Positions 1 to 64,000 are shown, counted from the stretch's first letter. The stretch: DNA of 64,000 nt from an uncultured Actinomycetes bacterium (GCA_963771385.1 CAVYTE010000012.1:145877-209876); one strand, 5' to 3'. Notes: generated by a model from the sequence alone, not told the origin. Made by a program: numbers and translations.

Positions 1-2
1 GC

Positions 3-332
3 CCTCCGAGGATGCTGAGGGTCTCTCCCGATGCCGACAACGCCAAGACCACGATCAACATCGTTGAGATGCCCAAGGTCCCGAGCGAGCGCGTCCATGC
101 CATCACCATGCACGACCTCCTTGCCGTCGAGGCGTTTCGCAACAACGCATCATGCCTCATCCTTTCGGGAGTGGATGAGAGGTCGCTCATCTATGAAGCG
201 TCCTCGTACGCAGAACGTGTGAGGTCGATCCGCGTTCTCCCTTGCGACAGAACCCGATGCTGCGTAGGTCGATTACGTCACTTGTCGCATTGTTCGCAGA
301 CCGGGCCCCTGACAACCTTCTCATCTGGGTAA
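3..332 (+). CDS. 3' end of an unidentified gene entering from upstream of the window (partial, function unknown)
   Basis: The frame is open from the window edge (ORF track 12..332). Third codon positions are strongly G/C for about the first 65 codons and then decay, so the real stop may be the TGA at 220-222 in a neighbouring frame. No family recognised from ..ITMHDLLAVEAFRNNASCLILSGVDERSLIYEASSYAER.. Confidence 0.3.
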   Translation, partial: PPRMLRVSPDADNAKTTINIVEMPKVPSERVHAITMHDLLAVEAFRNNASCLILSGVDERSLIYEASSYAERVRSIRVLPCDRTRCCVGRLRHLSHCSQTGPLTTFSSG

Positions 333-382
333 GCGAACAGCGCCCGGTCTGGTGCCGGGTGCGAGGCGGGGTCAGGGGGGAG

Positions 383-565
383 ATGCCCGCAGAGAAGCAA
401 GGGCTTCCCAGACGCGACTTCCTCAAGAGAGCGGCGGTCACCGGCGTCGGTGTCGCATGGGCAGCGCCGGTGATCCAGACGGTTGCGGCGACGAAGGCGT
501 ACGCCAACGGCATGGGGTCGCCGAAGTCCAAGAAGAAGAAGAAGCCGAAGAAGCCACCCGGCTAG
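383..565 (+). CDS. 60-aa pre-protein: twin-arginine (Tat) signal peptide followed by a short poly-lysine tail
   Basis: Internal ATG of ORF 242..565, preceded by a G-rich purine tract. LPRRDFLKRAAVTGVGVAWAAPVIQTVAA matches the S/T-R-R-x-F-L-K motif plus hydrophobic region plus AxA. The C-terminus GSPKSKKKKKPKKPPG is encoded by an AAG run. Confidence 0.5.
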   Translation: MPAEKQGLPRRDFLKRAAVTGVGVAWAAPVIQTVAATKAYANGMGSPKSKKKKKPKKPPG

Positions 566-663
566 GACTCGGCTTCAACGCACGAGCTCCTCGTCGCCGA
601 GGGCCACCACGCCGATCTCCGTAGTTGCCTATACGGCACGTGCAGAACCGAGGCCTCGCTTGG

Positions 664-1496
664 TCAGCTGACCGAGAGCAGCTCCCGCAACGCGTCGTCC
701 AGCGAGGGGAACGCCGGTACGCCGAGCTCACCCACGAACACGCTGACGAGCGCGCTGTTCTTCGGACGGCTCGCAACGAACCCGAGCTCCTCGGCTGTCT
801 GCTCCCGGACGGCTCCCCCGAACCCCCCGATCGACCTGGCTCGTGAGACCAGGTCGAACCACGTGGTCGGCTCCGGGCCGGCGAGGTGGTAGGTGCCGAA
901 GCGCTCGGTGAGGGCGAGCGGCAGGAGCCGCTCGGCCAGGTGCGCCACGTAGGTGGGGCTCCCGACCCGATCGGCGACCCCCCCGACGTCCCCTCCTCCC
1001 GCATCCGGCCGATCGCCTGGGAGAGGTGATCCGTCCCGCCGCCGAACACGTACGCCGTCCGTACGACCAGGTGCCGCGGCGTGATGCGACGGACGTGCTC
1101 TTCCCCCGCGAGCTTGCTGCGCCCGTAGACGTTCACGGGGTTCGGCATGTCGACCTCGTCGTACGGCGAGCCTTTCGTACCGTCGAACACGTAGTCGGTG
1201 GAGATGTGCACCAGGGTCGCGTCGCACGTTCGGGAAGCGAGCGCGAGGCTCTGCGGTCCGAGCGCGTTGTCGCGGAACGCACGCTCCGGGTCGCGCTCGC
1301 AGGCGTCGACGTTCGTGACCGCGGCCGCGTTCACGATGAGGTCGGGCGCGAGCGGCGCGATCGTCTGCATCACGGCGCCGTGATCGCCGATGTCGAGCTC
1401 TCGGTGCGTGAACGGGGCGACCTCGTGGTGCGAGGGGCAGGCCGCTAGGAACGCGCGGCCGAGGCCGCCGCCCGCGCCGGTGACCGCGATCCTCAC
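664..1496 (-). pseudogene. rmlD: dTDP-4-dehydrorhamnose reductase, interrupted by one frameshift as sequenced (probably an indel artefact)
   Basis: The N-terminal half (VRIAVTGAGGGLGRAF..STDYVFDG..YGRSKLAGE) lies in the frame of ORF 438..2138. The C-terminal half (GSPTYVAHLAERLL..FPSLDDALRELL) lies in ORF 664..1632. The break is near 1000, beside C/G homopolymers. The GTG start overlaps the rmlB stop (GTGA). Confidence 0.85.
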
Positions 1497-2491
1497 GCGG
1501 GCGCGCCGGCGAGGACCTCGCCGACCCAGTCCTGATGATCGCGGTACCACGCGAGCGTGGTCGCGAGACCGTCCGAGAACGGCGTCGCCGGCCGCCACCC
1601 GAGCCCCTCGAGGCGGCTCCACTCGAGCCCATAGGCGAGGTCGTGTCCGGGCCGGTCCGGCACGAACGTGATGAGCGACGGGTCGACGCCGAGCGTCGAA
1701 CAGATTCGCCGAGCGAGGTCGAGGTTCGAGAGCTCGGTCCCGCCGCCGATGTTGTAGACGCCGCCCGGATCTCCCCCGTCGAGCACGGCCGCGATCGCCC
1801 GAACGAAGTCCCGCACGTACAGCCACTCGCGGCGGTTCGAGCCGTCCCCGTACACGGGGACCGGACGGCCGTGCAGCGCAGCCGTCGCGAACGTGGGGAT
1901 CGCCTTCTCCGGGTGCTGCCTCGGCCCGAAGGCGTTCGTGCCTCGAACCGTCGTGGCGCGCAGCCCGTACGTCACCACGTACGCGTGCACGAGCAGGTCG
2001 GCGCCGGCCTTGCTCGCCGCGTACGGGTTGCGCGGGCGCATCGGATCCCCCTCGTCGAACGGATCGGCGTCGTCCTCCCGGGAGCCGTAGACCTCGTCCG
2101 TCGACACGTACACGAGCGGACGTTGGAGCTCCCGGCACGCCTCGAGCACCACCTGCGTGCCGAGCACGTTCGACAGCACGAAGGCGCGCGAGTCCTCGAT
2201 GCTCCGGTCGACGAACGACTCGGCCGCGGCATGGACCACGCGGTCGGCCTCCGCCACGAGGGGGGCGACGGCGGCGGCGTCCGACACGTCGCCGAGGACG
2301 AACCGGAACCGCGGATCCGGATCGTGGTGCGACAGGTTCAGCCGCGTGCCCGCGTAGGTGAGCCGGTCGAGCACCACCACCTCGATGCTCGGCCGCTCGA
2401 GGAGCAGGTCGACGAGGTGCGAACCGATGAACCCGGCGCCGCCCGTGACCAGGATGCGCTCGGCCCGCGACCCGTCGTCCCGTTCGGCCAT
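1493..2491 (-). CDS. rmlB: dTDP-glucose 4,6-dehydratase
   Basis: 332 codons from ATG 2491 within ORF 1493..3409. Motifs: ILVTGGAGFIGSH Rossmann motif, STDEVYG, YAASKAGADLL (YxxxK), and the C-terminal LAWYRDH region. Confidence 0.95.
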   Translation of the reverse strand: MAERDDGSRAERILVTGGAGFIGSHLVDLLLERPSIEVVVLDRLTYAGTRLNLSHHDPDPRFRFVLGDVSDAAAVAPLVAEADRVVHAAAESFVDRSIEDSRAFVLSNVLGTQVVLEACRELQRPLVYVSTDEVYGSREDDADPFDEGDPMRPRNPYAASKAGADLLVHAYVVTYGLRATTVRGTNAFGPRQHPEKAIPTFATAALHGRPVPVYGDGSNRREWLYVRDFVRAIAAVLDGGDPGGVYNIGGGTELSNLDLARRICSTLGVDPSLITFVPDRPGHDLAYGLEWSRLEGLGWRPATPFSDGLATTLAWYRDHQDWVGEVLAGAPA

Positions 2492-2502
2492 CGCGGCCGA
2501 GT

Positions 2503-3645
2503 CTACCGGCGGCTCGCGGCCCGGCAGGACGTCGGCGGTTCGGACCGCCGACCGCCCCCAGGTGAACGTGCGGACGCGATCGCGTCCCGCCGCGACCAGC
2601 CGCTCGCGAAGCGCGGCGTCGTCGAAGAGCGATCGAAGCCCGTCGCCGATCGCGGCCGTGTCGCCCGGGTCGACGAGCAGCGCCGCGTCACCGGCCACCT
2701 CGGGGAGCGAAGACGTGCTCGAGGTCAACACGGGTACGCCGGCCGAGAACCCCTCGAGCACCGGGAACCCGAACCCCTCGTAGCGCGACGGGTAGACGAG
2801 CGTGGTCGCCCCCGCGATCAGGGCCGCCTTCACGACGCCGCCGACGTACCCGGGGAGGACCACGCGACGGCGAACCGCCGCAGGAAGGCCCGCGACCTCG
2901 GCGCGCAGCGCCTCGGCCGCGTGCGGGATCCAGTTCGTCCGGCCGCCGGCGATCACCAGCCACGCGTCCACGTCACCGAGCGACGCGAACGCCTGCACGA
3001 GCGCGGACAGGTTCTTGCGTGGCTCGATCCCGCCGACGAACAACGCGTACGGTCCCTCGATCCCGAAGCTCGCTCGGACCTGCCCCACGTCGGCGGCGGG
3101 GGAGGCTCGAACGGCTCCGCGCCGTGCGGGATCACGTGGACCTCGCCCGCGACGTCGTGGCGCTCGAGGAGGTCTCGCCTCGTGCTGTCGGACGGCACGA
3201 TGACGGCGGCGGCGCGCCGGAGCCATCGGTCGAACCTCCTGCGCCACCGGGCGTCGTGGTGCGGCGCCGTGCCGGGCATCACCTCGTGCGCCAGGTCGTG
3301 CACGACGAGCACGACACCTCGGGACGACGTGGGCGGCGGCAGGAAGTTCGTCGCGAGCAGCGCATCGAAACGCAGGAGCCACTCGAGCCTCGGGACGTGG
3401 AGCCGCCACGACACCGGCTGGAACACGCGCGTCGGGAACCGGTCGGCGTGTTCGGTCAGGTTCCGGGCGCCGACGTCGTCGAAGAATCGTCGCCGCGACA
3501 GCAGGCCCTTCGGATCCAGGTACCAGGCGACGACCTCGTCGGCGGGTGCCGAGGCCGGCAGGTGCCCGACGATCTGGCGCGCGTAGTGGCCGACGCCGGT
3601 CCGCCGCGGATCGAGCGCCGGTCGCGCGTCGATCGCGAGCCGCAC
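2503..3645 (-). pseudogene. Family-4 (GT-B) glycosyltransferase, at least one frameshift and no in-frame stop as sequenced
   Basis: N-terminal domain in ORF 2953..3645 (MRLAIDARPAL..GVGHYA..VIPHGAEP). C-terminal domain in the rmlB frame (YALFVGGIEPRKN..PSRYEGFGFPVLEGFSAGVPVLTS). The break is near 3100 at a G run. The reading frame runs straight into the rmlB ATG, while a TAG at 2503-2505 sits in the adjacent frame. Confidence 0.8.
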
Positions 3646-3682
3646 GCGGCTAACCCGTCTCGGCGAGCCGCACGAGCGCCCG

Positions 3683-4733
3683 TCAGACCTCGACCTGGCC
3701 GTGGTCGCCGATCACGAGCCGGTGCACGTCGCCTTCGGCGTGGCGGATCTCGACGTCACGACCGATCACCGAGCCCCCGACGCCCCGAACCCGGAGATCT
3801 TCGAGCCCTCCATCACGATCGAGTCCGTGACGGTGCTTGCTGTCACCACGCAGCCGGCCGAGATCGCGACGTCCGGCCCGACGGTCGAGTCCTCCACGAG
3901 CGCGCTCTCTCCGACGATCACCGGCCCCATCACGGTCGAGCGGACGATCTTCGCGCCGGACTCGACCACGACCACCCCTTCGAGCGTCGAGTCCGCATCG
4001 ACCTCGCCGTCGACCCGTGGCTCGAGGGTGGCGAGGAGCATGCGGTTGGCATCGAGCAGGTCCTCGGGCCTGCCCGTGTCCTTCCACCAGCCCGAGAGCA
4101 TCTCGGCTCGCACGTTCCGCCCCCGGTCGACCAGCCACTGGATCGCCTCGGTGATCTCGTACTCCCCGCGCCACGAGGGCTCGAGCGATTCGCACGCCTC
4201 GATGATCTGGTCGTCGAACAGGTACACGCCGACGAGCGCGAGGTCCGAAACGTGCTCCTCGGCTTCTCGACGAGGCGGACCACACGATCGCCCTCGAGCA
4301 CGACGACGCCGAACCGCTCGGGCTCGGGCACCCGTGCCAGGAAGATCTGCGCGTCCGGCCGGTGGCGCTCGAAGCCCTCGACGAACCGCGCGATCCCCTC
4401 GAGCAGCACGTTGTCGCCGAGGTACATCACGAAGGGTTGGCCCTGCACGAAGTCCCGCGCCGTGAGCACCGCGTGGGCGAGGCCGAGCGGCGCCTCCTGC
4501 TCGAGGTAGGTGGCGCGAAGCCCGAACGCCGAACCGTCGCCGACCGCCGCCCGCACCTCGTCCCCGGTCGGCCCGACGACGATCCCGACCTCGGTGATCC
4601 CGGCCTCGCGGATCGAACGCAGGACGTGGAACAGGATCGGGGTGTTCGCGATCGGGATCAGCTGCTTCGAGTTCGTGTGGGTGAGCGGCCGGAGCCGCGA
4701 CCCCTCCCCGCCCGCGAGGACGAGCGCCCTCAC
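3683..4733 (-). pseudogene. rmlA: Glucose-1-phosphate thymidylyltransferase, long form with C-terminal left-handed beta-helix domain; two frameshifts as sequenced
   Basis: VRALVLAGGEGSRLRPLT..YLGDN (frame of ORF 3930..6119), then SDLALVGVYLF..EYEITEAIQWL (ORF 3766..4827), then GSVIGRDVEI..VIGDHGQVEV (ORF 3683..4285). Breaks near 4262 and 3795. Confidence 0.85.
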
Positions 4734-6119
4734 GAGGGGCACTCCACCGGCGCCTCGGTGCTCGGCGGGGGGATCTCGTAGTTCGCCGTGGCGACCACGG
4801 CCACGTCCACGCCGTCCGGGAGCGCACCCGCCGGCGCCGGCACGAGCGGCAGGTCCCGGAAGTACGTGCCGACCACCTTCGCCTCGGGCTCGAACCCCTC
4901 GCGGTACACGATCGCCGACCCCTTCACCGGTGAACGGACCTCGGCCCGGCCGACGACGCCGGGCGACGTGTTGAATCCGCCATCGGTGAGGACGCCGAGC
5001 ATGTCGGTCGCGACGATACCCGCGGCCTTGTCGACGACGGTGACGACGATGTTGGCGGGGCTCGGCGGGATCGACGCCAGCTGCCTGCCGAGATCGCCGA
5101 GCGGCTTGCCCTGCCTGATGCGTTCGAACAGCTGGGTCGCCTGCGGCTCGATCGACCGAACGATCGAAAGGTACTGGCCGTCCACGATGGTCCCGGCCGG
5201 GATCGAGGGCACCGAGCGGAAGTCCGCCGCTCCGGTGTTCACGCCGTCGAGGGTGCCCGCCAGGTACACGAGCTCGGCAGGGTTGCGCAGGCCCTCGTCG
5301 ACGACGAGGTTGTCGAGGAGCTCGGGCACGAGTGTCGGCAGCCGCAGCAGCTCGCCCGGCGACAGCAGCCGCGAGACCACCGCGCGCATGAACTGCTGCT
5401 GGCGTCCGATCCTCGCGAAGTCCGGGATCGCGTCGCAGGGCTGGTGCCGGGTCCGCACGTACGCGAGCGCCGTCGAGCCGTCGAACCGCTGGCACCCAGC
5501 GGGGATGTCCAGGCCGGTCAGCTCGTCCTGCATCGGGTACGGGACGCACACGTCCACACCGTCGAGCGCGTCGACGAGTCCCTGGAACCCGGCGAGGTCG
5601 ACGTACAGGACGTGGTGGATCCGCAGCCCGGTGAGCTGCTTCACGGTGCGCGCGACGCGCTGCGCGCCCCCGCCGTCGATACCGCCCTCGAACGCCGAGT
5701 TGATCCTCCCCGCGCCGACGCCCGGGATGTCGACCCACAGGTCGCGCGGGAACGACAGGAACGTCGCCTGCCGCTGGTCCGGCTCCGTGTGCACCAGGAT
5801 GATCGTGTCGGAGCGGTTCTCGCCGCCGATGTCCTCGTCCGTCCCGAACGCCACCTGCTCCTCCGGCGTGAGCCCCTCGCGCGAGTCGCTCCCGAGCAGC
5901 AGGTAGTTGCAGGCGCGCTCGTCGCACACGCCGGCGATATCGGGCTCGGCCGGCTCGGTCGCCTCGGTCTGGGGCGGGTCGGGGATCACGTTGATCTGGC
6001 CACGGGCCCAGAAGTACGTCCCCATGCTGAACGCCGCCACGCACCGCGACGAACGCGGAGACGCTGGCCGTCGCGGCCAGGAACGCGCGGCGCGCGTGCG
6101 GGTGGGAGTGGTCGACCAT
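4730..6119 (-). pseudogene. LytR-CpsA-Psr (LCP) family cell-wall glycopolymer transferase with LytR_C-type C-terminal domain; one frameshift near the N-terminal TM segment
   Basis: The 3' third of ORF 4730..8152 reads NYLLLGSDSRE..RSDTIILVH..FLSFPRDLWV..INSAFEGG. The N-terminus MVDHSHPHARRAFLAATASVSAFVAV is in ORF 3930..6119. The break is near 6047. Confidence 0.85.
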
Positions 6120-6172
6120 AGGCTGTCCGGGAAGCGTACCGGCACCGCCGGGGACGCGAGACGGAGGCCCCC

Positions 6173-8116
6173 GTGACGATCGTGTGGAAACCGAGCGACG
6201 AAGTGGTCGAGCGGGCGAACGTGACTCGGTTCATGCGTGCCAACGGGATCGCCTCCGAGGACGAGCTGGTCCGGCGCTCCACGCAGGATGTCGGCTGGTT
6301 CTGGGACGCCGTGGTTCGCGACCTCGGACTCGAGTTCTTCGAGCCGTACGAACGCGTCCTGGACACCTCCCGCGGGGTCGAGTGGGCGACGTGGTTCGGC
6401 GGCGGCAGCGTGAACCTCGCGCACAACTGCGTGGACCGATGGGCCGAACGCACGCCGAACGCGCTCGCCCTCGTCTGGGAGGGCGAGGAGGGCGAGGTCC
6501 GCACGTGACGTACCGCGAGCTGCGTGAGACCGCCGACCGGCTCGCGCACGGGCTGGTCTCGCTCGGCGTCGAGACCGGCGACGCGGTCGGGATCTTCCTC
6601 CCGATGACCCCGGATGCCGTCGCCTCGGTGTTCGCGTGCGCGAAGCTCGGCGCGATCTTCCTCCCGATCTTCTAGCGGGTTCGGGGCGGACGCCGTCGCG
6701 CAACGACTCGCCGACGCGCAGGCGAAGGTCCTCATCACGGCCGACGGGTTCCCTCGCCGCGGGAAGCATGTCGCGATGAAGGAGGTGGCCGACGAGGCCG
6801 TGGCGCTCGCGCCGAGCGTGGAACGCGTGATCGTGGTCGAGCGCGCCTTCCGCGCGGACACGCCCTGGGATCCGGCGCGCGACCTCCGTTGGGACGAGCT
6901 GCTGTGGCAGCAGCCCGAACGGTTCGAGACGAGGCATCTCGATCCGGAGCACCCGCTGTTCATCGCGTACACGAGCGGCACGACCGGCCGGCCCAAGGGC
7001 GCTGTCCACGTCCACGGCGGGTTCCTCGTGAAGATCGCCGAGGAGGTCGCGTACCAGACCGACGTGCAGCAAGGTGACGTCTTGTTCTGGTTCGCCGATC
7101 TCGGCTGGATCATGGGCCCGTGGGAGATCGTCGGCGCGACGGCGCTCGGTGCGACCGTGTTCCTGTACGACGGCGCCCCGAACCACCCCGGGCCCGATCG
7201 CCTGTGGTCGCTCGTCGAGCGCCACGAGGTCACGCACCTGGGCGTCTCCCCCACCCTGATCCGCGCGCTGATCCCCGCGGGCGAGCAAGCGGTCCGGTCG
7301 CACGACCTCTCCTCGCTCCGGATCCTCGCGTCCACCGGGGAGCCGTGGAACCCGGAGCCGTACCGGTGGTTCTTCGACGAGGTCGGCGGTGGGCGCCTGC
7401 CGGTCATCAACCTGTCCGGTGGGACCGAGATCGGCGCCTGCTTCCTCTCGCCGCACCCGATCAGCTCGCTGAAGTCCTGCACGCTGCGCGGTCCGTCGCT
7501 CGGCATGGACCTCGCGGTCTTCCGGCCCGACGGGACGGAGGCGGACCCGGGTGAGGTCGGCGAGCTCGTCTGTCGTCAGCCCTGGCCCTCGATGACGCGC
7601 GGCCTGCGCGGCGACCCCGAGCGATACCTCGAGACCTACTGGCGCCGGTTCCCCGGCGTCTGGTGCCACGGCGATTGGGCAAGCGTGGACGAGGACGGCT
7701 TCTGGTTCCTGCACGGTCGAAGCGACGACACGATGAACGTCGCCGGCAAGCGGCTCGGCCCGGCCGAGGTCGAGAGCATCCTGACCCTGCACCCGTCGGT
7801 TGCGGAATCGGCCGTGGTGGGTATCCCGGACGAGGTGAAGGGCGAGGCGATCTGGTGTTTCGTCGTGACGAAAGGGGAGACGGCATCCGGGATCGAGCGG
7901 GAGCTGGAGGGGCTGGTCGCCGATCACCTCGGCAAGGCCTTCGCACCGTCCCGTGTCGTGGTCGTGCCCGAACTGCCTCGCACCCGGTCGGCGAAGATCC
8001 TGCGCCGGGCGATCCGCGCGACCGTCACGGGCGACGAAGCCGGCGACCTCTCCAGCCTCGAGAACCCGGCGGCGCTCGACTCCATCCGCTCCGCGGTCGA
8101 TCGACCCGCTGGTTGA
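6173..8116 (+). pseudogene. AMP-forming acyl-CoA synthetase (acetyl/propionyl-CoA synthetase family), two frameshifts as sequenced
   Basis: Three consecutive ORFs (6173..6508, 6184..6675, 6614..8116) read through as one ~647-aa protein. Motifs: WFGGGSVNLAHNCVDRW, YTSGTTGRPKG, WIMGPW, TGEPWN, HGRSDDTMNVAGKRLGP, RTRSAKILRR. Breaks near 6505 and 6672. Confidence 0.85.
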
Positions 8117-10529: not shown

Positions 10530-13250
<2,721 letters not shown>

Positions 13251-13840: not shown

Positions 13841-14651
13841 GTGCGCCGCCCGCTCACCTCCGTCACCCTCATCGCGTTCGTCGCGATCGTCTCGCTCGCC
13901 GCGTGCACCTCGGACGACGAAGGGACGTCGGACCCGACGGCAAGCGGACCAACGGCGTCTGGATCGAACACCGGGAGCGCGCCACCCACCGGACCGTCGA
14001 CCGGGAGCGCCACACCGAGCGCGAGCGAGGAACCGGCGCCGGAACTCCAACTGCCGGCCGACGCACCCAGCTCGGTCGACGACTCCGCCGACGTCGCGCT
14101 GATCGAGGCCGGGGATCACTCGGTGCTCATCCCACCGGGGGCCGAGGACACGATCGCGATCCGTCAGACGACCCCCGACGATCCGATCGACCAGATCGCC
14201 GTGGCGTGGCGGCGCGGCTCCGACCCGTTCGCCCCCGAGGTCGGGTTCGTCGTGTGGCAGCGTTCCGATGCAGGACGACGACGCCGGCTGGCGAGCCGTC
14301 TACGCGTTCACCGACCGGCCGAGCGCGGGCGTCCTCGGCATCCGCGTCGTTCCCGCCGACCTCACCGGGGACGGCGTCGACGACCTGCTCACCGAGGAGC
14401 AGCGGGGCGGGAGCGGAGCCTGCGCCACCTGGCGGGTGATCGCCTCGGCCGCCGGGGGTGCGGCGGAGATCTACCGGCGCGAGGGCTGCGACACGGAGAT
14501 CTCGGCCGTGGACGGGGCGCTCGAGATCCGAGAGGCCGTCTTCGAGCCGGGCGACCCGCACTGCTGCCCGACCGCGTACCGGACCACCGTGCTCGAGTGG
14601 GACGGCCAGGCGTGGGCGGAGGTCTCCACCGAGGTCGAGCCCGCCCGCTAG
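13841..14651 (+). pseudogene. Lipoprotein of unknown function, one frameshift as sequenced
   Basis: MRRPLTSVTLIAFVAIVSLAAC (lipobox LAAC) followed by a Ser/Thr/Pro-rich linker. The C-terminal part (DLTGDGVDDLL, paired Cys) continues in ORF 14268..14651 after a break near 14265. It shares a frame with the next gene, which is why the ORF track shows one 1,934-aa ORF. Confidence 0.6.
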
Positions 14652-19645: not shown

Positions 19646-21921
19646 ACCATCACGGCGGTGCTTCGGCGCCGTCCGGTCTTCTGCACGACGATCGACGCGG
19701 GGAACTGGTCCTTGATGCGCTCCGCGTGAGTGATCACGAACAACTGGTGGAACCGACCCGCCAACATCCCGAGCGCCCGGACCATCAGGTCCTTGCGCTC
19801 CTCGTCGAGCGAACCGAGCACCTCGTCGAGCACCATCAACCCGACGTCGGCACCGGAGACGCGCGACAGGTGCGTGGAGATGGCGACGCGGAGCGCGAGG
19901 TTCGCGAGGTCGATCTCCGAGCCCGAGAACCGATCGATCGGGAAGTACGCGTCACCGTCCGCGATCCGGATCTCGAGGCTCTCCTCGTCCACGCGCAGGT
20001 CGTCGTACGCGTGGTTCGTGAGCTCGCGGAACAACGCCTCGGCCTCCCGCGAGAGCTCGGGACCGACGCGCGCGACGAGATGATCGCGGAAGCCGTCCAG
20101 CAGCATCGCCACCCGTTCGACGTACCGGGCGTCGGAGCGGAGGTCATCGACGCGAGACGCGATCTCCTTGGCCTGTCCGAGCGCCCCGGCGAGCTCGCTC
20201 CGCTTGAGCTCCGCGCGTTGCAGCTCGACGCCCGCCGAGCGTTCGGCCTCGACGGCCTCCTCGACCGCCTGCTCGGCGCGTTGCAGGTCCTCGGTCGAGC
20301 GTGCGTGTTCGGCCGGGTCGAACGAGATCGCGCTCGCCTCGTCCGTCAGCTTCGCGAGCTCGTCCTCGAGCACCGCGATCCGAGCGTCCGCGGCGGACAG
20401 ATCCGTGCGGAGCTGCGCAGCGAAGCCCCGGTGCGCACCCAGCTCCGCGATCCGCTCCCCGAGGACCCGGGCCCGCTCGGCTCCTGCGCGGAGCTCGTTG
20501 ACGTCGGGCGGGACCCCCTCGAACGGCTGGGCGAGGGGCGCGAGCTCGGCGCGCATCGCGTCGAGCTGTTCCGTCAGCCGTGTGCGCTGCTCGCCGGCGC
20601 GCCGAGCGTCTTCGGCTGCCGAGATCGCCGCGTCGAGCGCCTTCACGACCTTCGCCAGCGCGGTCTGCGCACGTTCGGCGGAGGCCGACGCGTCGGCGGC
20701 CGTCCGTTTCGCGCTCGCGACCTCGGCCTTGCAATGCTTCACGTACGCGGCGAAGTCCTCGAGCGGCCGGCCGCACGTCGGACACGGTTGCGTCGGGTCG
20801 GCTTCGGCGGCCCGGTCCAGACGCGCCTGAGCCTCCTCGAGCGCCGAGACGCGTTGGTTGAGCTCGGCCTGCGCGCCCGCCGCCGCGGCCTGCGACTCCC
20901 CGTGCGCCGCCTGCGCCTGCCCGAGCGCGTCGAGGGCGGCCTCGGCTTCGACCTCGGGGAGCGAGATCAGCTGCAACTCCACCGCATGCGCCCGGTCGGT
21001 CGCCTCGACGAAACGCAGGCCGAGCCGCAGTCGCTCGTCCGCGTCGCCGAACCCGGCGAGCTCGGACTCGAGCTCCGGAAGTGCCTCGAGCTCGGCCGCG
21101 AGCCGCTCGAGCCGCTCCCCCAGCTCGTCGCGCTCGGTCAGCCGCTCGTCACGGCGCTCGACCTTCTCGGTCAGGAGCGCGCCGAGCCGCTCGATGCGTT
21201 CTCGCGCCCGGTCGATCCGCCGAAACGCCTCCGTGGCCGCCTTGGCCTGCTTCGTCGTCGCCTTCCGCGCCTCCTGCGCGTCCTTCGCGACGCGCTTCGC
21301 CTCGGCCGCCGCCTCCCCGGCGTCCTTCAGTTCCGCCTCGAGCGCGGCCAGATCCGGCACGGCCTCCTGGAGCTGGGCGGCGTTCTCCTTGGCCGCGCGG
21401 GCCTGCCGGCGGGCGGCGGTGCGCGCGTCGTCGACCGGCTTGATGCCGAGCAAGCGCAGCGCCATCTCGACGCGTTCGCCGCGCCGCAGGTCCGAGAACG
21501 CGTCGAGCTGCTTCTGCTCCGCGTACACGGAAGCTCGGAACACGCGCAGGTCCATGTGGAGGATCCTGGCGATCTCCTCGTTCACCTCGGTCGTCCCCGA
21601 CGCGAACGGGCGGGTCCCGACGAAGAGCTCGGCCTCCGGCGCATGGCCCCTCCCCTTGATGGCACGCCGGACCTCGAACTGCTGTCCGGCGTGCTCGAAC
21701 ACGAGACGCACCAGGCAGTCGGACAGGACGCCGTGGGTGCGGATCTCCTGTCGCTTGGTCCGCGCGGCCTCGGCCCCGTAGCAGGCGAACGCGATCGACT
21801 CCACGAGCGTGGACTTCCCGCTGCCGTTCTCGCCGAAGATCCCGATCACCCGAGCCGGCAGCTCGAGGTCGAGCTCCTCGAACACCCGGTAGTTGCGCAA
21901 CGACAGCTCGAGGACCCTCAC
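19642..21921 (-). CDS. sbcC: SbcC/Rad50-family DNA double-strand-break repair ATPase with zinc hook
   Basis: GTG 21921 within ORF 19642..22710. Walker A GENGSGKSTL, long coiled coil with central PCPTCGRPL hook, signature RFSGSE, Walker B LMVLDEVLGSLD, and ITH near the C-terminus. The start overlaps the sbcD stop. Confidence 0.9.
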   Translation of the reverse strand: MRVLELSLRNYRVFEELDLELPARVIGIFGENGSGKSTLVESIAFACYGAEAARTKRQEIRTHGVLSDCLVRLVFEHAGQQFEVRRAIKGRGHAPEAELFVGTRPFASGTTEVNEEIARILHMDLRVFRASVYAEQKQLDAFSDLRRGERVEMALRLLGIKPVDDARTAARRQARAAKENAAQLQEAVPDLAALEAELKDAGEAAAEAKRVAKDAQEARKATTKQAKAATEAFRRIDRARERIERLGALLTEKVERRDERLTERDELGERLERLAAELEALPELESELAGFGDADERLRLGLRFVEATDRAHAVELQLISLPEVEAEAALDALGQAQAAHGESQAAAAGAQAELNQRVSALEEAQARLDRAAEADPTQPCPTCGRPLEDFAAYVKHCKAEVASAKRTAADASASAERAQTALAKVVKALDAAISAAEDARRAGEQRTRLTEQLDAMRAELAPLAQPFEGVPPDVNELRAGAERARVLGERIAELGAHRGFAAQLRTDLSAADARIAVLEDELAKLTDEASAISFDPAEHARSTEDLQRAEQAVEEAVEAERSAGVELQRAELKRSELAGALGQAKEIASRVDDLRSDARYVERVAMLLDGFRDHLVARVGPELSREAEALFRELTNHAYDDLRVDEESLEIRIADGDAYFPIDRFSGSEIDLANLALRVAISTHLSRVSGADVGLMVLDEVLGSLDEERKDLMVRALGMLAGRFHQLFVITHAERIKDQFPASIVVQKTGRRRSTAVMV

Positions 21922-23050
21922 ACGGTCTCCCCGCGCGCGTCGGACAGGAACCCGGCGCCGATCGACACGACCCGCTCGCGTTCGAGCCCCGCCAGATCCT
22001 GCAGCTCGACGTACGACGTCCACTCCCGCTCGAGCGAACCGATCGTGGGACCGCCCTGAATCGCGAGCGCCTCGGCGCCGAAGTCCGGCTCGACCTGGAC
22101 CCAGATCGCGCTCGGGACGGCCTCGTGGAACTGCTCGCCCGCGATCTGTCGGAACGACGCCGGGTCCACCTCGTTCAGGTAGACCCGCACGATCGCGCGC
22201 TCGGGGATCCCGCGCGCCGCGCGCTCGACCGCGTCGACGAGCTCGCCGGCCGACAGCCCGGCGGCCGCGACGCTCACGGTGGCGAGCGGACGCTCGTGCG
22301 GGTTCTCCACGTGCTCGACCGTCCCCGCGTCGGTGTCGATCACGACGAGCCCCTTCGCGGCCTCGGGCGTGTCCGCGTACGAGAACGTGTCGGTCGAGCC
22401 CGCGTACCACGTGCGCTTCGAGACCTTCTGGTGCGCGTGGTAGTGGCCGAGCACGACGAGGTCGAACCCGCGTGTGGAACGCCGCCTCCTCGACCTCGAG
22501 CTCGTTGATGTCGGGATAGATCGCGAGCCGGCAGCGAGGTGAGCGCGACGTGCGCGAGCAGCAGGTTCGTGCGGTCGGGCCGGACCGCGGCGGCCGCGGC
22601 CGCGAGCTGCTCGCGAAGCTCCTCGACCGACAGCGTCTGCGGAACGGCGTGAACCGCGACCCCGGCCAGTTCGGTGGCCATCGCCTCCATGCGCCAGGCG
22701 AACGCGACACCGGGGAACACCCGCTCCAGCGCGTCGTACGGCGAGCCGGTTCCGCGGACGCGGGGCGTGTCGTGGTTGCCGCTGATCGCGGCGCCTCGCA
22801 GGCCGGCGTCGGTGAGACGTTGGAGCCCGCCGAGCACGTGCGCGAAGGTCCGATAGGTCGGCCTCGCGTGATCGAAGATGTCTCCGAGCCACAGGAAGCC
22901 GTCGGGTTCCTGCCGGATCGTCTCGTCCACCGCCCAGGCGAACGAGCGGAGGAAGTCCTCCTCGCGGAGGTTCCGGCCCTCGTCGTCCCGCAGGTGCGCG
23001 AGGTGCGTACGCCCGAGGTGGGCGTCCCCGAGCGCGACGAGCCTGCTCAT
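21918..23050 (-). pseudogene. sbcD: SbcD/Mre11-family nuclease, two frameshifts as sequenced
   Basis: Phosphoesterase motifs GDAHLG, WLGDIFDH and SGNHD (ORF 22340..23050), then IYPDINELEVEEAAF (third frame), then DLVVLGHYHAH (ORF 21918..22892). Breaks near 22525 and 22470. Confidence 0.85.
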
Positions 23051-41284: not shown

Positions 41285-42238
41285 AGGTCACGCTGATCAC
41301 CACGGTGCTGAACGCGTCGGACCGCGTCGGCGCGTTCCTCGAGTCGGTCGCGTGGCAGACGCGGTCGCCCGATGAGGTCGTCGTCGTCGACGGCGGCTCG
41401 ACCGACGGCACGCTCGAGATCGTACGGGGATCCGCGGACGTCTCCCTGGTCGAGCAGCCGGGCGCGAACATCGCCCGCGGCCGGAACCTCGCGATCGCGT
41501 CGGCCACGCACGACGTGATCGCGGTGTCCGACGCGGACTGCGTGCTCGAACGCGACTGGCTCGAGCGGCTGCTCGAGCCGCTCGAGGCGGGGGCGGACGT
41601 GGCGATGGGGTTCTACCGGCCGCTCGCCGACTCGTTCCTCCAGCGCGCGATGTCGTGCGTGAACCTCCCCGACGCGGACGAGCTCGACGAGGCCACGTTC
41701 ATGCCGAGCGGCCGGTCGGTGGCATTCACGAAGGAGGCGATCGAGCGCGGCCGGCGGGTATCCGGAGTGGCTCGACATCGGCGAGGACATGTTCGTCGAT
41801 CACCGGTTCCGCGAGCTCGGGCTCGACATGCGGCTCGTCCCCCGCGCGGTCGTGAACTGGCCGCTCCGGGCGTCGCTCGCGGAGACCTGGCGTCAGTACT
41901 TCCGCTACGCGCGCGGGGACGCGGAGGCGGGGATGTTCCCCGAACGCCACGCGCTGCGGTTCGGCGTCTACTCGGCCGGCCTGTACGCGTGGTCGACGCG
42001 CGGGCTGCTCCGCAAGGCGGCCACGCTCGCCGGCGCGGGCGCGTACGCGTTCACGCCGCTCCGGCGTGCGCGCGACCGTTTCGACGATCCCGCGGAACGC
42101 GCGCGGGCGATGCTCGCGGTGCCGGGGCTGATGGCGTTCATCGACAGCGCGAAGATGGCCGGCTGGCTGGCCGGTGCGCGTCGCCGTGCCGAGCGCCCGG
42201 AGCGCCCGTCGGGAACCGTTGTCGGAAGGCACGCGTAG
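41281..42238 (+). pseudogene. Family-2 (GT-A) glycosyltransferase, one frameshift as sequenced
   Basis: MKVTLITTVLNASDR..VVVVDGGSTDGT..AVSDADC, then (break near 41745) GYPEWLDIGEDMFVDHRF..WRQYFRYARGDAEAG in ORF 41789..42238. ATGA overlap with the previous gene. Confidence 0.8.
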
Positions 42239-46140: not shown

Positions 46141-46586
46141 ATGCACCGGAGGATCGTGGGCCTCCTCTTCGTGACGCTCGTGCTCGCCGCCTGTGGCTCG
46201 GGTGGCGAGACCGGCGGCGCCACGGCGTCGCCGTCCACGTCGCCCTCGTCGCCGAGCACCGCGACGCGGCCGAGCAGCACCGCCGACCTCGCGATCGTGC
46301 AGCCGAAGACCGGCAGGGTGCGTCGAGGGTTCGATCGTCCTGCTGCAGGTCTCGCTCGAGGGTGCGAAGCTCGTCCCGCAGACGACGACCGACATCGCTC
46401 CGGACGAAGGACACCTGCACGTGCTGCTCGACGACCAGCTGATCTCGATGACCGAGGGGCTCGAGCAGGCAGATCGCCGACGTCGCGCCCGGCACCCACC
46501 GGATCACGGTCGAGTTCGTGGCCAGCGATCACGTCCCGTTCGACCCGCGCGTGGTCTCGGTCGTCGCCTTCGAGGTGCGACCGTGA
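46141..46586 (+). pseudogene. Lipoprotein with DUF4399-like domain, two frameshifts as sequenced
   Basis: MHRRIVGLLFVTLVLAACGSGG lipobox, then TDIAPDEGHLHVLLDD, then THRITVEFVASDHVPFDPRVVSVVAFEVRP. The pieces pass through three frames, with breaks near 46320 and 46470. Confidence 0.65.
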
Positions 46587-47153
46587 GCGCGCTCGATCCC
46601 CGCGTCGAACGATCGGACCCGACGCTCCCGGCGATCGTCGTCGTCGTCGCCGGCACCGTCGCGCTGCTCGCGAGGCCCTTCGTGGTCGCCGGCCCGAACG
46701 CACGCATCGGCCTGCTCGCCACGGCCTACGTCGCGATCGCCCTCGCCTGCATCGCCGTCCCGGTCGAGCGGGGTCGAGCACTGATCCCCTTCTCCGCCGT
46801 GGCGCTGATCGGGCTCGGCGCCGTGGCGGCCGCCGTGGTCCTGGCCGGCCCGGCCGTCCCGGTTCCCTGGGGCTCGGCGGCACTGCCGCTCTCGGTGCTC
46901 GCGGCCGTCGCCGAAGAGGCGCTGTTCCGACGCGTCGCGTACGCGCGGTTCGAGCGGTTCGGGCCCGCGCCGGCGATCGTCGTCACGCGCCTGTCTGTTC
47001 GCGCTCGTCCACGTGCCCGCGTACGGCCCCGCCGCGCTGCCCGTGGACCTCGGCGCGGGCCTGCTCTTCGGGTGGCAGCGCTGGGCGAGCGGGACCTGGA
47101 TCGCGCCCGCCACGACCCACGCGGCGGCGAACGCGTGGGTGGTGCTCGGATGA
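46583..47153 (+). pseudogene. CPBP-family (CAAX-type) intramembrane glutamic protease, one frameshift as sequenced
   Basis: GTG overlapping the previous stop. Multiple TM segments; EEALFRR motif; after the break near 46985, LFALVHVP..THAAANAW. Confidence 0.7.
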
Positions 47154-48402
47154 GGCGCGCGCTCTCTGCCGCGCTCGTCGGCGCGCTCGTGGTCCTGAGC
47201 GCCTGCACCGGGGCCCCGCAGGAGGAGCCGATCCGGATCGGCGCCGTCTATCCGCTCTCCGGCACCCAGGGACCGGGCGGGGTCGACGAGTTCCACGGCG
47301 TCCAGGTCGCGGTCCAGCTCGCGAACGCGGACGGCGGGGTGCGCGGGCGGCCGATCGAGCTCGTCCCGGTCGACGTCCCTGCCGCCGATGCCGCGCCCGG
47401 GGCGATCGAGCACCTCGAGGACCTCGGCGTGCGGCTGCTCCTCGGGAGCTACGGGAGCACGATCTCGGCCCCGGCGGCCGAGGCCGCCGCGAGGCGTGGA
47501 CTGCTGTTCTGGGAGACCGGCGCGGTCGGCGAGATGACGCGGTGCCGGCGCGGGCGAGCTCGTGTTCCGCGTCGCGCCGTCGGGCGCGGTCCTCGGTCGC
47601 AACGCGATCGGGTTCGTTGCGGACGAGTACGCCCCGGTGCTCGGAACCGATCCCGCGGCGTTGCGGTACGCGGTCACCCTCGTCGACGACGCCTACGGAC
47701 GCGCGGTCGCCGAGGGTGGCATCGACGAGATCCGGGCTCGCGGATTCACGCTCGCGGGCACATTCGCGTACGACCCGCGGACCGTGGACATGCGGGCGTT
47801 CGTGCGGGACCTCGCATCCAGCCGGCCGGACGTCGTGTTCGTGTCCGCGTACCTGCAGGACGCGATCGACATGCGTCGCGAGATGGTTCGGCAGGGTCTG
47901 GACGTCCTGGTCGGCATCGGGACCTCGTCGAGCTACTGCATGCCGGCGTTCGGCGCCGAGCTCGGGCGACGAGGCGGTCGGCCTGTTCGCCTCGGACAAG
48001 CCGGACTCGGACGCGCTGAACGTGGAGGGCCTCACGCGCTCGGGACGCCTCCTGCTCGAACGCGCGGAGACGGCGTTCGGGGACCGGTTCGGCGAGCCGA
48101 TGAGCGCCGCCGCGCTCGCCGGCTTCTCGGGAGCGTGGGCGCTGCTGCACGAGGTGCTGCCCGAGGCCACGGGCCTCGCACCGATCGAGGTCGCATCGGC
48201 CGCGAACGCCACGAGGCTGCCCTCGGGATCCCTCCCGAACGGCGGCGGGCTGCGCTTCGGAGAGCCGGGAACGGTCACCGCCGGCGCCAACCTGCTCGCG
48301 TCGAGCGTGATCTGGCAGTGGCAGGCGCCCGGCTCGTACGCGGTCGTCTCCCCCGACCGATACGCGACGAGCGAGACCCTGCTGCTCGATCCCCTCCCGT
48401 GA
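47150..48402 (+). pseudogene. ABC transporter substrate-binding lipoprotein (Leu/Ile/Val-binding protein family), two frameshifts as sequenced
   Basis: MRRALSAALVGALVVLSAC lipobox, IRIGAVYPLSGTQGPGG, LLLGSYGSTIS, then ORF 47562 frame (VFRVAPSGAVLG..DVVFVSAYLQDA), then ORF 46060 frame to the stop at 48402. Breaks near 47540 and 47965. Confidence 0.8.
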
Positions 48403-58556: not shown

Positions 58557-59723
58557 CCGCCTGCTCCCTCGTCGTTCGCGAGGACGACGACCGCGCCCGA
58601 GGTCGACGGGACCGCGCGCGTCGACTGCGCGACCGCGACGTAGGTCTCGTCGACCTGGCGCTCGCCGGCCTCGCCGCGAAGCTGTTCGACGCACTCGAGG
58701 AGCCGGACGAGGCCGTTGGCCTCGAACAGGTTGCCCTGCCCGAGCGAGCCGCCGGACACGTTCACGGGGAGGTCGCCGCCCGGATCGAGCTCACCCTCTT
58801 CGAGCATCCCGGCCAGATCGCTCGCCGACGCGAGCCCGAGGGCCTCGACGTGCTGCAGCTCACGGTACGCGTACACGTCGTCCACCTCGACGAGGTCGAT
58901 CTCCTCCTGCGGATCGGCGATGTCGGCCTGCCGGTAGGCGGCGGCCGCGGCCGTCGTCACGAAGTCGGCCTCCCCCCACGCGCGGCTCTCCAGGGTCGGA
59001 CTGCCCGAGGCCCACCCGGCGCCCAGCAGCCACACCGGCCCCTCGGTGAGCTCGCGCACCCGGCCCTCGGCAGCCAGCACCACGACCACGCACCCGTCCG
59101 CGCGCCCCGCGACCTCGAGCTCCCGCAGGGGCCATGCGACCGGGGCCGAATCCTCGACGTCCTCGACCGCGAGCGTCGCCGGATACGCGGCCCGTGGGTT
59201 GTCGAGCGCGTTCGAGCGGTTCTTCGCGGCGACCATCGCCGTGTGCTCCTCGGACAGGCCGGTGCGCTCGAGGAACGCGAGCATGTCGAGCCCGGCGAGC
59301 GCCGTGCGTCGGGAACCGGAGCGGACGGTTCAGCACCGGGTCGAGCGCGAACGCCTCGATCCGTCCGAGCGTGCGGACGTCCGAGACCTTGCTGTGCGCC
59401 TCGACCGCGACGACCGACGCGAGCCCCGAACGGATCAGCATGAGTCCCGTCGCGACGCCGAAGAGCCCGTCGGCGGTCACGGTGTGCACCGGCCGCTGCA
59501 TCGCGCCGATCTGGTCGGGCACGTACTCGTCGAAGATCGACGTGCCCTCGAGCAGGTCTTCCGAACAGCACACGAACGAGTCGACGTCCTCGCGCGGGTC
59601 GACCCCGGCGTCGTGGTACGCGCGCTGGGCCGCCTCGAACATCAACTCCTTGTAGGAGACGCCGGCGGTGATCGGGGCGAACCCCGCGTGACCGACCCCC
59701 ACGACCGCGACCCTCGGCTCCAC
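58553..59723 (-). pseudogene. Second thiolase-fold protein lacking the nucleophilic Cys, one frameshift as sequenced
   Basis: ORF 58860..59723 (MEPRVAVVGVGHAGF..HTVTADGLFGVATGLMLIRSG) continues in ORF 58553..59284 (AAKNRSNALDNPRA..NVSGGSLGQGN). Break near 59300. Confidence 0.8.
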
Positions 59724-61718: not shown

Positions 61719-61720
61719 GG

Positions 61721-62070: not shown

Positions 62071-62430
62071 TCAGGCGCCAGGGATCGGCGGGCCTCGTTC
62101 GGCCAGGTCGTTGGCGAGGACATCCGTCGAACCGGCCGAGGCCGGACGCGGGATCTCGCCGGTGAACCATCGGGGCGGGTCGATGCCGGTTCCCGCCTCG
62201 GGCACCGCGTGCAACCCTCGGACCGTGTCGGTGCGCTTGCCACCCGGCCACACCTTCGGTCGATCCGGCGTCACGACCATCGGGGTCGTGAGCGAACCGA
62301 TCGAATCCGACGACGGATGGACGGAGGGCGTCGGGGAACGCCACCAGTCCGACGGCGAGGCAGCGATCCAGGGAAGGATGGCGATCGCGAGGAGGAAGAC
62401 CGCCGCACGCGGGACCGCGGTTCGGGTCAC
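62071..62430 (-). CDS. Secreted hypothetical protein
   Basis: Signal-peptide-like MTRTAVPRAAVFLLAIAILPWIAASPS. Third codon positions are almost all G/C. Confidence 0.5.
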   Translation of the reverse strand: MTRTAVPRAAVFLLAIAILPWIAASPSDWWRSPTPSVHPSSDSIGSLTTPMVVTPDRPKVWPGGKRTDTVRGLHAVPEAGTGIDPPRWFTGEIPRPASAGSTDVLANDLAERGPPIPGA

Positions 62431-62469
62431 GACACAGAGCCTAGGTGTGACGGCGACGAGCTCGCAACA

Positions 62470-63132
62470 TCAGCGGTCGCCCAGGACCCTCTTCTTCTGG
62501 TTCTGGAACTCGGCCTCGGTGAGGACGCCCCGGTCGCGGAGCTCCGCGAGCCGCTCGAGCTCGCCGGTGGTCGAGGCGGCGGCGGGTGTCGAGACGGGCG
62601 ATGCGGCCGCCTCGGCGGCGCGTCCTCCGCCGAACATGCGCTCCTTGTTCAGCTCGCCCTGGTGGTAGATCGTCTTCTGGACGTCCTCCGGGTTGCGGAT
62701 GTCGCCGAAGACCTGGCGCCCGAACTCGCTCGCCGACGAGATGATCAGGTCGCCCGCACCGATCATCCGCTCGAACACGCCCTGGTGGAACCGCACGTCG
62801 TTGATCGCCTCGAGCGGGATCTCCATCGAGCGCTTGGCGATCCACCCCTCTCGGTGGATCACGCGATCCGACGTGACCACGAAGTGCGACGTCGCCCAGG
62901 AGATGATGCCGCGGACCGAGTACATGATCAGGAGCACGACGGCCACGGCGGTCGCCCCCCACACGACGACGCTGCGTCCCGCCCCGTCGTCCGGCGCGTA
63001 GACGAGCGCGGCGATCAAGCCCCCGAGGACCAGCACCGCGACCACGACCGGGACGACGAGGGCGATCCAGTGCGGACGGAGCTCGAGGACGAGATCCTCG
63101 CCGTCGATCAATACCCTGCGCGGGAACGCCAC
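62470..63132 (-). CDS. Membrane bacterial-PH (YdbT/DUF304-like) domain protein with C-terminal SHOCT domain
   Basis: GTG 63132 in ORF 62470..63702. Two TM segments, then VVTSDRVIHREGWIAKRSMEIPLEAINDVRF, and C-terminal LERLAELRDRGVLTEAEFQNQKKRVL. Confidence 0.75.
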   Translation of the reverse strand: MAFPRRVLIDGEDLVLELRPHWIALVVPVVVAVLVLGGLIAALVYAPDDGAGRSVVVWGATAVAVVLLIMYSVRGIISWATSHFVVTSDRVIHREGWIAKRSMEIPLEAINDVRFHQGVFERMIGAGDLIISSASEFGRQVFGDIRNPEDVQKTIYHQGELNKERMFGGGRAAEAAASPVSTPAAASTTGELERLAELRDRGVLTEAEFQNQKKRVLGDR

Positions 63133-63164
63133 GGCCGAAATCCTACTCCAGCCTGCGCACCCGG

Positions 63165-63920
63165 CTATTCGAGGTGTCGCACCTCGCCGAAGCGCACGAC
63201 CCGCAGGCCGTCGTCGGTGCTGACGACCAGTCCGCCGAGCTCGTCGACGCCGACCGCTTCGCCGGCGACGACCGCACCGTCGGACGTCGTCGCATGGACG
63301 CGCATGCCGAGCGTCGCGCACACCTCCCGGTAGGCCGTGATGACCGCACCCGCGAACGCCGGATGCCCCGGCTCGTAGCCACGCGCGAACGCCGAGAGGA
63401 ACGCCTCGAGCAGCTCGTCCGCCTCGGCGTCGACCGCCCCGGCCTCCGGCACCTCCGGCGGCGGCTCGCGCAGGTTCACGCCGACCCCGATCACGACGTA
63501 CTCGAACCGCCCCTGCGCAACCCGCGACTCGGCCAGGATCCCGCCCGCCTTGCGACCGGCGACCAGGAGGTCGTTCGGCCACTTGCAGGCGGCCCGCTGG
63601 TCGGCGAGCTCGCGAGCGGCGTGCGCGAGGGCCGTCCCGGCGAGCAGGGTGAGCAGGCCTCCGGCTTCCGGCTCGAGCGACGGCCGCAGGACGAACGAGC
63701 ACATGAGCGCGCCGCCGGGCTCATCGCGCCACGGCCGGCCGAGGCGACCGCGGCCGGCCGTCTGATGTCCGGCGGCCACGAGCGACCATTCCGGCGCGCC
63801 CTCGGCCGCCAGCTCCAGGGCCGTCGCCTGGGTCGAGCCGGTAACCTCCTCGAACCGCACGGGGGCGCGCTGACCCGCTCGTTCGAGGGCTCGGACCAGG
63901 GCATCTTCGGAAAGCACCAA
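63165..63920 (-). CDS. birA: Biotin--[acetyl-CoA-carboxylase] ligase (group I, no HTH)
   Basis: HQTAGRGRLGRPW, KWPNDLL..GRKAGGILAE, and a C-terminal SH3-like tail. The start codon is TTG or GTG at 63920/63917. Confidence 0.9.
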   Translation of the reverse strand: MVLSEDALVRALERAGQRAPVRFEEVTGSTQATALELAAEGAPEWSLVAAGHQTAGRGRLGRPWRDEPGGALMCSFVLRPSLEPEAGGLLTLLAGTALAHAARELADQRAACKWPNDLLVAGRKAGGILAESRVAQGRFEYVVIGVGVNLREPPPEVPEAGAVDAEADELLEAFLSAFARGYEPGHPAFAGAVITAYREVCATLGMRVHATTSDGAVVAGEAVGVDELGGLVVSTDDGLRVVRFGEVRHLE

Positions 63921-64000
63921 CGGTTGACTCCCGTTCAGGGGTACCCGATTATCGGCTGCCGGAGCGCACCCCGAAAAACCGCCGGAGGCATGTGGCCAAA

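Follow-up and report, generated by a model that had tools for sequence, protein, structure and literature searches.

Pseudogene-rich, decaying genomes are known from Mycobacterium leprae and from recently host-restricted symbionts, and bacterial pseudogenes in general carry a deletional bias. Programmed frameshifts (e.g. the +1 shift of prfB and the -1 shift of dnaX) rely on a conserved slippery sequence and are themselves retained among relatives. Homopolymer errors, on the other hand, are the classic signature of Nanopore R9, 454 and Ion Torrent sequencing. In metagenome-assembled genomes (MAGs) built from long reads, residual insertions and deletions (indels) in the consensus lead to frameshifts, split genes and lowered completeness estimates, the more so at low coverage, and the residual errors described in publications mainly concern homopolymer length (PMC9262707, PMC8103633). 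This problem has been measured by IDEEL and addressed by proovframe, by the frameshift correction of MEGAN-LR and by short-read polishing (PMC9262707, PMC8103633, bioRxiv 10.1101/2021.08.23.457338). Here we analyze the reading-frame breaks, ∼55 in total, that interrupt conserved genes in a 64,000-nt stretch of DNA from an uncultured Actinomycetes bacterium (GCA_963771385.1; the stretch, G000:C12:145877-209876 in our notation, is referred to as the window and its assembly as G000). As judged from a comparison of assembled sequences, these breaks are very probably consensus errors of a long-read metagenome assembly rather than mutations present in the organism.

The assembly G000 comprises 3.42 Mb in 24 contigs (∼70% GC, completeness 74.65%, contamination 2.13%). 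Its nearest relative among the searched genomes is G002, a member of the same genus that is assembled in 9 contigs and is 83% complete. G002 matches the window collinearly from end to end at a nucleotide identity of 95-96%, apart from a 7.9-kb island found in G002 only; the syntenic segment used for comparison, G002:C7:205001-280000, was aligned with the window by blastn. Four further genomes of the same genus (G003, G007, G009 and G012, ∼75-85% identity) served as outgroups. G009 is a short-read soil MAG assembled with MEGAHIT (SMAG_U1677) and G012 is an Illumina assembly (MFD04307_ilm_asm_bin8), while G003 and G007 are long-read MAGs of the Microflora Danica project (MFD02159.bin.1.20 and MFD10007.bin.2.144) and form, together with G002, the group of few-contig relatives (at most 10 contigs each). 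Private indels were counted in a multi-genome alignment processed in 1.5-kb steps, accepting private gaps of 1, 2, 4 or 5 bp with clean flanks. Frame breaks were additionally called by a seven-state codon-usage hidden Markov model (HMM) trained on 607 long open reading frames (ORFs) of G000; this detector makes no use of relatives, and its calls were filtered to drop natural gene ends. This combination of DNA-level polarization and codon HMM was used instead of chaining tblastn matches of the relatives' ORFs, which was dropped because of its noise: in DNA of high GC content, shadow ORFs of the other strand align as well.

The blastn alignment of the window with G002 contains 170 indel events, 127 of them of a single base pair (77 extra and 50 missing bases in the window). 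A first-pass annotation, made from the sequence of the window, had listed about 50 breaks, and all 35 positions that it gave explicitly fall within 16 nt of a 1-bp indel relative to G002 (e.g. 997 for the listed 1000, 3101 for 3100, 4260 for 4262, 59306 for 59300, and the very same nucleotide for 22470, 32008 and 46470). The HMM recovered 30 of the ∼55 breaks of the window, every one of them at a position of that list, so that its genome-wide counts are to be read as a lower bound. The blockwise clustering described in the first-pass annotation was borne out, with a variance-to-mean ratio in 2-kb bins of 5.6 for 44 polarized events (permutation p ∼1e-4) and of 2.1 for the HMM calls (p = 3e-4), and so was the integrity of the genes it had considered clean (14804-19615, sbcC, pccB, copCD and the cyclase gene), which the HMM left unbroken. 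The assertion that the encoded protein stays family-like across the breaks and free of in-frame stops was likewise substantiated: Pfam matches of successive fragments abut in profile coordinates (NTP_transferase 2-163 and then 168-242 on either side of 4262; Aconitase 14-97 and then 98-207 on either side of 12779, with more pieces downstream), and not one of the 70 coding fragments with a length of 80 codons or more contains an in-frame stop.

A protein that is family-like on both sides of every break would also be produced by programmed recoding, in which ribosomal frameshifting or transcriptional slippage would allow these genes to be expressed normally. The probability of this scenario appears negligible, as no common slippery motif or homopolymer is present at the sites, up to 22 of them occur in one gene, and they are missing from a sister genome 95-96% identical to the window as well as from the four outgroups. 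Recoding at thousands of sites, with shifts in both directions, is not known from any system.

Polarization against the outgroups assigned the excess of indels to the window. As many as 45 events are window-derived (G002 and two to four outgroups agree against the window) and 11 are derived in G002, the remainder being close pairs or events without an outgroup. Within the 36 kb aligned, the window carries 43 private frameshifting indels (31 insertions and 12 deletions), compared with 6 in G002 and 7 in G003; none was found in G007, and G009 and G012 have 2 each (over 22.5 kb and 21 kb, respectively). As the window and G002 represent sister lineages, real mutations would be expected to be divided roughly evenly between them, which is far from the observed split of 43:6 (binomial p = 6e-8). 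The substitution rates show the opposite imbalance, with 12.6-14.1 substitutions per kb on the G002 branch vs 8.4-9.3 on the window branch.

The same type of break extends over the whole assembly, where the HMM detected at least 1,260 frame breaks (0.37/kb, as compared with 0.47/kb in the window) on 23 of the 24 contigs, the density per contig ranging from 0 (C1, 6.9 kb) and 0.15/kb (C22) up to 1.16/kb (C10). Given that 30 of the ∼55 window breaks were detected, some 2,000 breaks are probably present in all. Net +1 shifts prevail over net -1 shifts by 876:384 overall and by 465:131 among the 596 precisely placed breaks (p = 9e-45). The distribution is overdispersed, the variance-to-mean ratio being 2.4 for 2-kb bins and 5.5 for 10-kb bins. 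Of the 10-kb bins, 24.5% contain no break at all, vs 2.6% expected from a Poisson distribution. Clusters of at least five events number 76 and hold 58% of all events; they span 0.9-17 kb, with a median of 3.3 kb. The breaks become denser with local GC content by a factor of ∼12, DNA below 64% GC having 0.14 per 2 kb and DNA above 73% GC 1.72 (Spearman rho 0.21, p = 3e-18). In the whole assembly, the breaks show neither a strand bias (631 vs 629) nor a contig-end effect. Profile searches of the genome revealed secA in 4 abutting pieces, alaS in 3 and dnaE in at least six, along with intact rpoB, rpoC and gyrA. Two dnaE-like loci, both fragmented (G000:C2:301647-304817 and C2:338404-341504), lie on either side of the genome's largest error cluster (C2:320383-337395, 31 HMM breaks in 17 kb).

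Breaks that cluster in particular genes, some of which hold many of them in the manner of old pseudogenes, together with a break at 34327 that is common to the window and its sister G002, could be taken as signs of real and very recent genome decay, with ∼2,000 true frameshifts and most of the affected genes being fresh pseudogenes. If some 20 indels had accumulated in a gene by drift, relaxed constraint, stops and deletions would be expected. Where two or more outgroups share the same base, the rate of window-derived substitutions is 8.4/kb in the five hot blocks vs 9.3/kb elsewhere, and the share of third codon positions among them is 60.5% in hot and 60.4% in clean DNA (odds ratio 1.00). 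A relaxation of purifying selection in the broken genes was thus rejected, both the rate and the codon-position spectrum being the same as in intact DNA; an excess of substitution errors in the hot blocks was also sought, and none was found. Even the aconitase gene, despite its 22 indels, has accumulated only 13 and 12 lineage-specific substitutions in two 1-kb bins (17 and 11 in G002), and the alignment of the window with G002 contains no large deletion in any of the broken genes, which are free of in-frame stops as well. The insertion bias (31:12 among the private indels of the window and 3.5:1 among the precisely placed breaks of the genome) is contrary to the deletional bias expected of bacterial pseudogenes. 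The clusters form physical blocks that extend over adjacent genes on both strands rather than over functional sets of genes, and the sister genome, at 95-96% identity, has seven times fewer such events. In fact, decay would leave secA, alaS, dnaE and ftsH all dead, and a living cell with frameshifts in all four is not credible. Overall, we regard genome decay as extremely improbable. The view of the first-pass annotation that the breaks are indel errors and not pseudogenisation is upheld by the private indel counts (43 vs 6), the unchanged constraint, the insertion bias, the genome-wide occurrence and the indispensable nature of genes that are struck.

The abundance of breaks follows the type of assembly. 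The two short-read genomes, G009 and G012, yielded a single HMM call in 94 kb, and the few-contig relatives yielded 9 in 75 kb (G002), 7 in 60 kb (G003) and 3 in 84 kb (G007), that is, 0.04-0.12/kb. The break rate of 0.37-0.47/kb in G000 thus compares with ∼0.01/kb in its short-read relatives, albeit in a small sample of relatives. In the Microflora Danica project, Nanopore reads were assembled with metaFlye and polished by one round of Medaka, short reads being used for binning only (PMC12313526). The 24 contigs, the low completeness and the error profile of G000 would fit a Nanopore product of Flye and Medaka, and its platform was probably of this Nanopore-only type.

With respect to the sequence context, several breaks had originally been placed in or next to homopolymers, an association that does not hold in general: only ∼14 of the 45 polarized window events lengthen or shorten a run. 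Genome-wide, the longest run within ±6 nt averages 2.21 at insertion-like sites vs 2.40 at controls placed 150-400 nt from them, and CCCC/GGGG is found near 3.4% of break sites vs 10.8% of controls. This depletion rules out the homopolymer subtype of consensus error but not consensus error as such. No dominant k-mer was present at the break sites genome-wide. A methylation motif at the breaks was considered and rejected, the k-mer shifts being weak (GCGA/TCGC 43% vs 31%, ATCG 26% vs 19%).

In the mechanism that we propose, a long-read consensus would never have been corrected to finished quality, the caller leaving behind spurious single bases, about 3 insertions per deletion, mostly outside homopolymers and more commonly in GC-rich DNA. 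The error stretches of ∼1-17 kb (median 3.3 kb) would correspond to the scale of long reads, and a block structure at this scale suggests that few usable reads, or reads of mixed origin, were stacked there, owing either to low local depth or to co-occurring relatives that contributed reads. Gene callers would then cut each affected gene into abutting pieces, which would also lower the completeness estimate.

A more specific form of the artefact would involve a mixed pile-up and not low depth, with reads from co-occurring relatives or strains lying on conserved genes and the polisher adding bases. The location of many hot blocks in well-conserved genes (aconitase, ftsH, the rml genes, secA and dnaE) would agree with it, but the equally conserved pccB, rpoB, rpoC, gyrA and the thiolase gene at 30212-31369 are clean, and block 1 includes breaks in poorly conserved DNA without an outgroup match. 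In favor of it, the bins at 22-25 kb are the richest in outgroup-conserved sites. Against it, divergence from G002 shows no consistent trend as a predictor of hot blocks, being neither consistently high nor consistently low in them, and the chimeric substitutions to be expected from a mixture would have appeared as an excess that is not observed. Private insertions of G002 cluster in the same ftsH region as those of the window, an overlap that is expected by chance in ∼1 of 4 cases. Co-occurrence in itself is plausible, as there are many MAGs of the same genus from the same Danish soil survey. Overall, a purely mixed pile-up appears possible, if somewhat unlikely. It is, on the other hand, very unlikely that the hot blocks mark kb-scale patches of base modification or lesion in GC-rich tracts, which would make the basecaller or polisher insert bases. 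The rise with GC content, the scarcity of homopolymers at the sites, the predominance of insertions and the cluster of G002 errors at ftsH would be compatible with this reading. If true, the error map would be an indirect read-out of patchy modification.

Several considerations weigh against long-read consensus error as formulated here. The spectrum is not that of textbook Nanopore data: the sites shun homopolymers and insertions dominate. The verdict of an artefact is drawn from assembled sequences, and the Nanopore-only origin of G000 is carried over from its relatives. The gradient with GC content may partly be due to a better sensitivity of the HMM in GC-rich coding DNA. Finally, the break at ∼34327, the only one of its kind among the listed breaks, is common to the independent assembly G002 and could be genuine.

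The struck and intact loci of the window are compiled in the table below. The gene names assigned in the first-pass annotation agree with the Pfam matches, namely RmlD_sub_bind for rmlD, NTP_transferase for rmlA, LytR_cpsA_psr for the LCP gene, Aconitase and Aconitase_C for aconitase, AAA_23/SMC_N for sbcC, Metallophos for sbcD, DUF87 for the HerA-like ATPase, AAA and Peptidase_M41 for ftsH, ADH_N and ADH_zinc_N for the Ccr-like reductase, Carboxyl_trans for pccB, CopC and CopD for copCD, and Guanylate_cyc, AAA_16 and TPR for the cyclase gene.

Table. Struck and intact loci of the window, with positions counted from its first nucleotide
Feature	Position	Strand	State and breaks
Hot block 1	670..8101	both	One-base breaks 997, 3101, 3793, 4260, 6042, 6503, 6673 vs G002
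rmlD-like gene	670-1490	-	Struck, hot block 1
GT4 glycosyltransferase/dehydratase	1502-3645	-	Struck, hot block 1
rmlA	3844-4736	-	Struck, hot block 1
LCP gene	4742-6040	-	Upstream edge struck, hot block 1
AMP-binding acyl-CoA synthetase	6125-8101	+	Struck, hot block 1
Aconitase gene	10533..13250	-	At least 10 frame pieces; 22 indels, 10885-12775, mostly 1-bp insertions
Isolated +1 break 14270, in coding stretch just upstream of giant repetitive gene	14255..14275	+	G insertion vs G002
Repetitive coiled-coil-like gene, 4.8 kb, 1,604 aa	14804..19615	+	Unbroken (HMM)
sbcC	19645-21915	-	Intact (HMM, Pfam)
Hot block 3: sbcD (Metallophos), HerA-like ATPase (DUF87), neighbours	21921..25719	-	Nine breaks
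Acyl-CoA dehydrogenase	29050..30190	-	Isolated 1-bp insertion 29365; HMM switch 29368
Thiolase	30212-31369		Clean (HMM, Pfam)
ftsH (AAA + Peptidase_M41)	31905..33708	-	Window-private indels 32008, 32852, 33090, 33498, 33657, 33674
Glyoxalase-family (methylmalonyl-CoA-epimerase-like) gene and upstream coding stretch	33909..34651	+	Window-private indels 33914, 34113
Ccr-like enoyl reductase (ADH_N + ADH_zinc_N)	34690..35903	-	Deletion 34767; compensating deletion/insertion 35267/35291; all window-private
pccB (Carboxyl_trans)	38050..39603	+	Intact (HMM, Pfam)
GT2 glycosyltransferase	41266..42172	+	Isolated 1-bp insertion 41749
copCD	44160-46097	+	Intact (HMM, Pfam)
Hot block 5: periplasmic-binding-protein (Peripla_BP_6) gene	46206..48396	+	1-bp insertions 46321, 46470, 46987, 47538, 47964
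Cyclase/AAA_16/TPR gene	51650-54766	-	Intact (HMM, Pfam)
Thiolase-like (Thiolase_C_1) gene	58568..59723	-	Isolated 1-bp insertion 59306

In hot block 1, the breaks at 3101, 6042 and 6673 are window-derived relative to the outgroups, and those at 997, 3793 and 4260 have no outgroup; the HMM switches frame at 961, 3101 and 4262, and the Pfam pieces abut in profile coordinates. The break near 1000 had been assigned to a run of four G, in place of which the comparison with G002 indicates a GG run (the event is without an outgroup and thus unpolarized). On the minus strand of the same block, a single open frame at 1493-3409 contains the C-terminal half of a GT4 glycosyltransferase fused to an entire RmlB-like 4,6-dehydratase/epimerase. 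The glycosyltransferase ORF of G007 stops near window position 2492, and the window differs from G002 by 1 bp at 2524; this apparent fusion may have been created by an indel error.

The aconitase gene constitutes the densest block, with indels at ∼1.1% of its bases. A cluster of breaks had correctly been recognized between 10.9 and 12.8 kb, although the estimate of 15-17 was too low, 22 events being counted relative to G002. An aconitase of 910-911 aa is encoded in one unshifted stretch in each of G002, G003, G007 and G012 but not in the window, where the Aconitase and Aconitase_C pieces are found in successive frames. A search for a second copy of the DNA of this block elsewhere in the assembly (a haplotig) found none. 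The 7.9-kb island restricted to G002 (G002:C7:260372-268226) corresponds to window positions 10511-10529, directly upstream of the aconitase gene, and looks like a real strain-specific island. By eye only, its ORFs resemble a multicopper oxidase, a zinc alcohol dehydrogenase, a CBS-domain protein, a flavodoxin-like protein and a GAF sensor kinase accompanied by a response regulator of the LuxR type.

At the isolated break 14270 the HMM switches from state 2 to state 3 at 14261, and the polarization of this event is ambiguous because of a poor outgroup alignment. For the repetitive 1,604-aa protein encoded downstream, all Pfam matches are sub-threshold. Its repeats differ in length from those of G002, with dense short gaps as well as longer ones at 17.09-17.2 and 17.9-18.24 kb, and this repeat region is therefore variable between two species at 95% identity.

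The nine breaks of hot block 3 (22470, 22523, 23384, 23489, 23763, 24466, 24541, 24855 and 25289), eight of them 1-bp insertions, are all window-derived, G002, G003 and G007 being mutually consistent. All five insertions of hot block 5 are likewise window-derived (relative to G002 and three outgroups), as is the insertion at 29365 (relative to four outgroups).

In ftsH, the six-genome alignment revealed private insertions of G002 at sites other than those of the window (32232, 33015, 33032, 33295 and 33314). Over window positions 32232-33940, the G002 segment carries a total of 8 insertions and 1 deletion private to it, clustered where the window has its own, including one window/G002 pair only 7 nt apart (33498/33505). 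The overlap could be due either to chance, at ∼1 in 4, or to a locus-dependent error process. In the adjacent glyoxalase-family gene, at ∼34327, both the window and G002 have one extra base relative to the four outgroups within the (CG)n run ACGCGCGCGCT, and three outgroup epimerase-like proteins align to both of them with an identical +1 switch. This shared break would either have been inherited from a common ancestor as a real change or reflect one systematic error made in both assemblies. In the Ccr-like reductase, an insertion and a deletion had been noticed at 35270-35300; the pair is confirmed, with a spacing of 23 nt rather than ∼30.

As an assembly artefact, these breaks mean that nothing is gained or lost for the biology of the organism, and their practical value is that of a data-quality warning. 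In the organism itself, the genes for aconitase, FtsH, RmlA/D, the LCP protein and the Ccr-like reductase, as well as the SbcCD/HerA repair genes, are best regarded as intact. G000 represents its species in a one-genome-per-species collection and probably carries ∼2,000 spurious frameshifts, which depress its estimated completeness (74.65%), supply databases with fragmented proteins and can give rise to false pseudogenes, false gene fusions (such as the ORF at 1493-3409) and false "novel small genes". The rest of the assembly is to be read with this error mode in mind. As it is insertion-biased, located outside homopolymers, GC-dependent and arranged in blocks, checks focused on homopolymers would miss it.

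When compared with known systems, the breaks share with programmed frameshifts of the prfB and dnaX type a single-base change of frame within a functional gene, but they lack both a slippery motif and conservation across relatives. As in decaying genomes of the Mycobacterium leprae type, many conserved genes are frameshifted while their similarity is still recognizable; in contrast to such genomes, constraint is retained, substitutions are not in excess, insertions predominate, stops and large deletions are missing, indispensable genes are struck, and the sister species, 95-96% identical, remains largely unbroken. The likeness to the consensus indels of long-read (Nanopore or PacBio) MAGs lies in one-base indels that split conserved genes throughout the genome and lower its marker-based completeness (74.65%), and in their near absence from the short-read assemblies of relatives and far lower number in other few-contig relatives. 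What distinguishes the present case from these MAGs is that homopolymers are avoided, insertions exceed deletions by ∼3.5:1, and the breaks, steeply dependent on GC content, are gathered in blocks of ∼3 kb.

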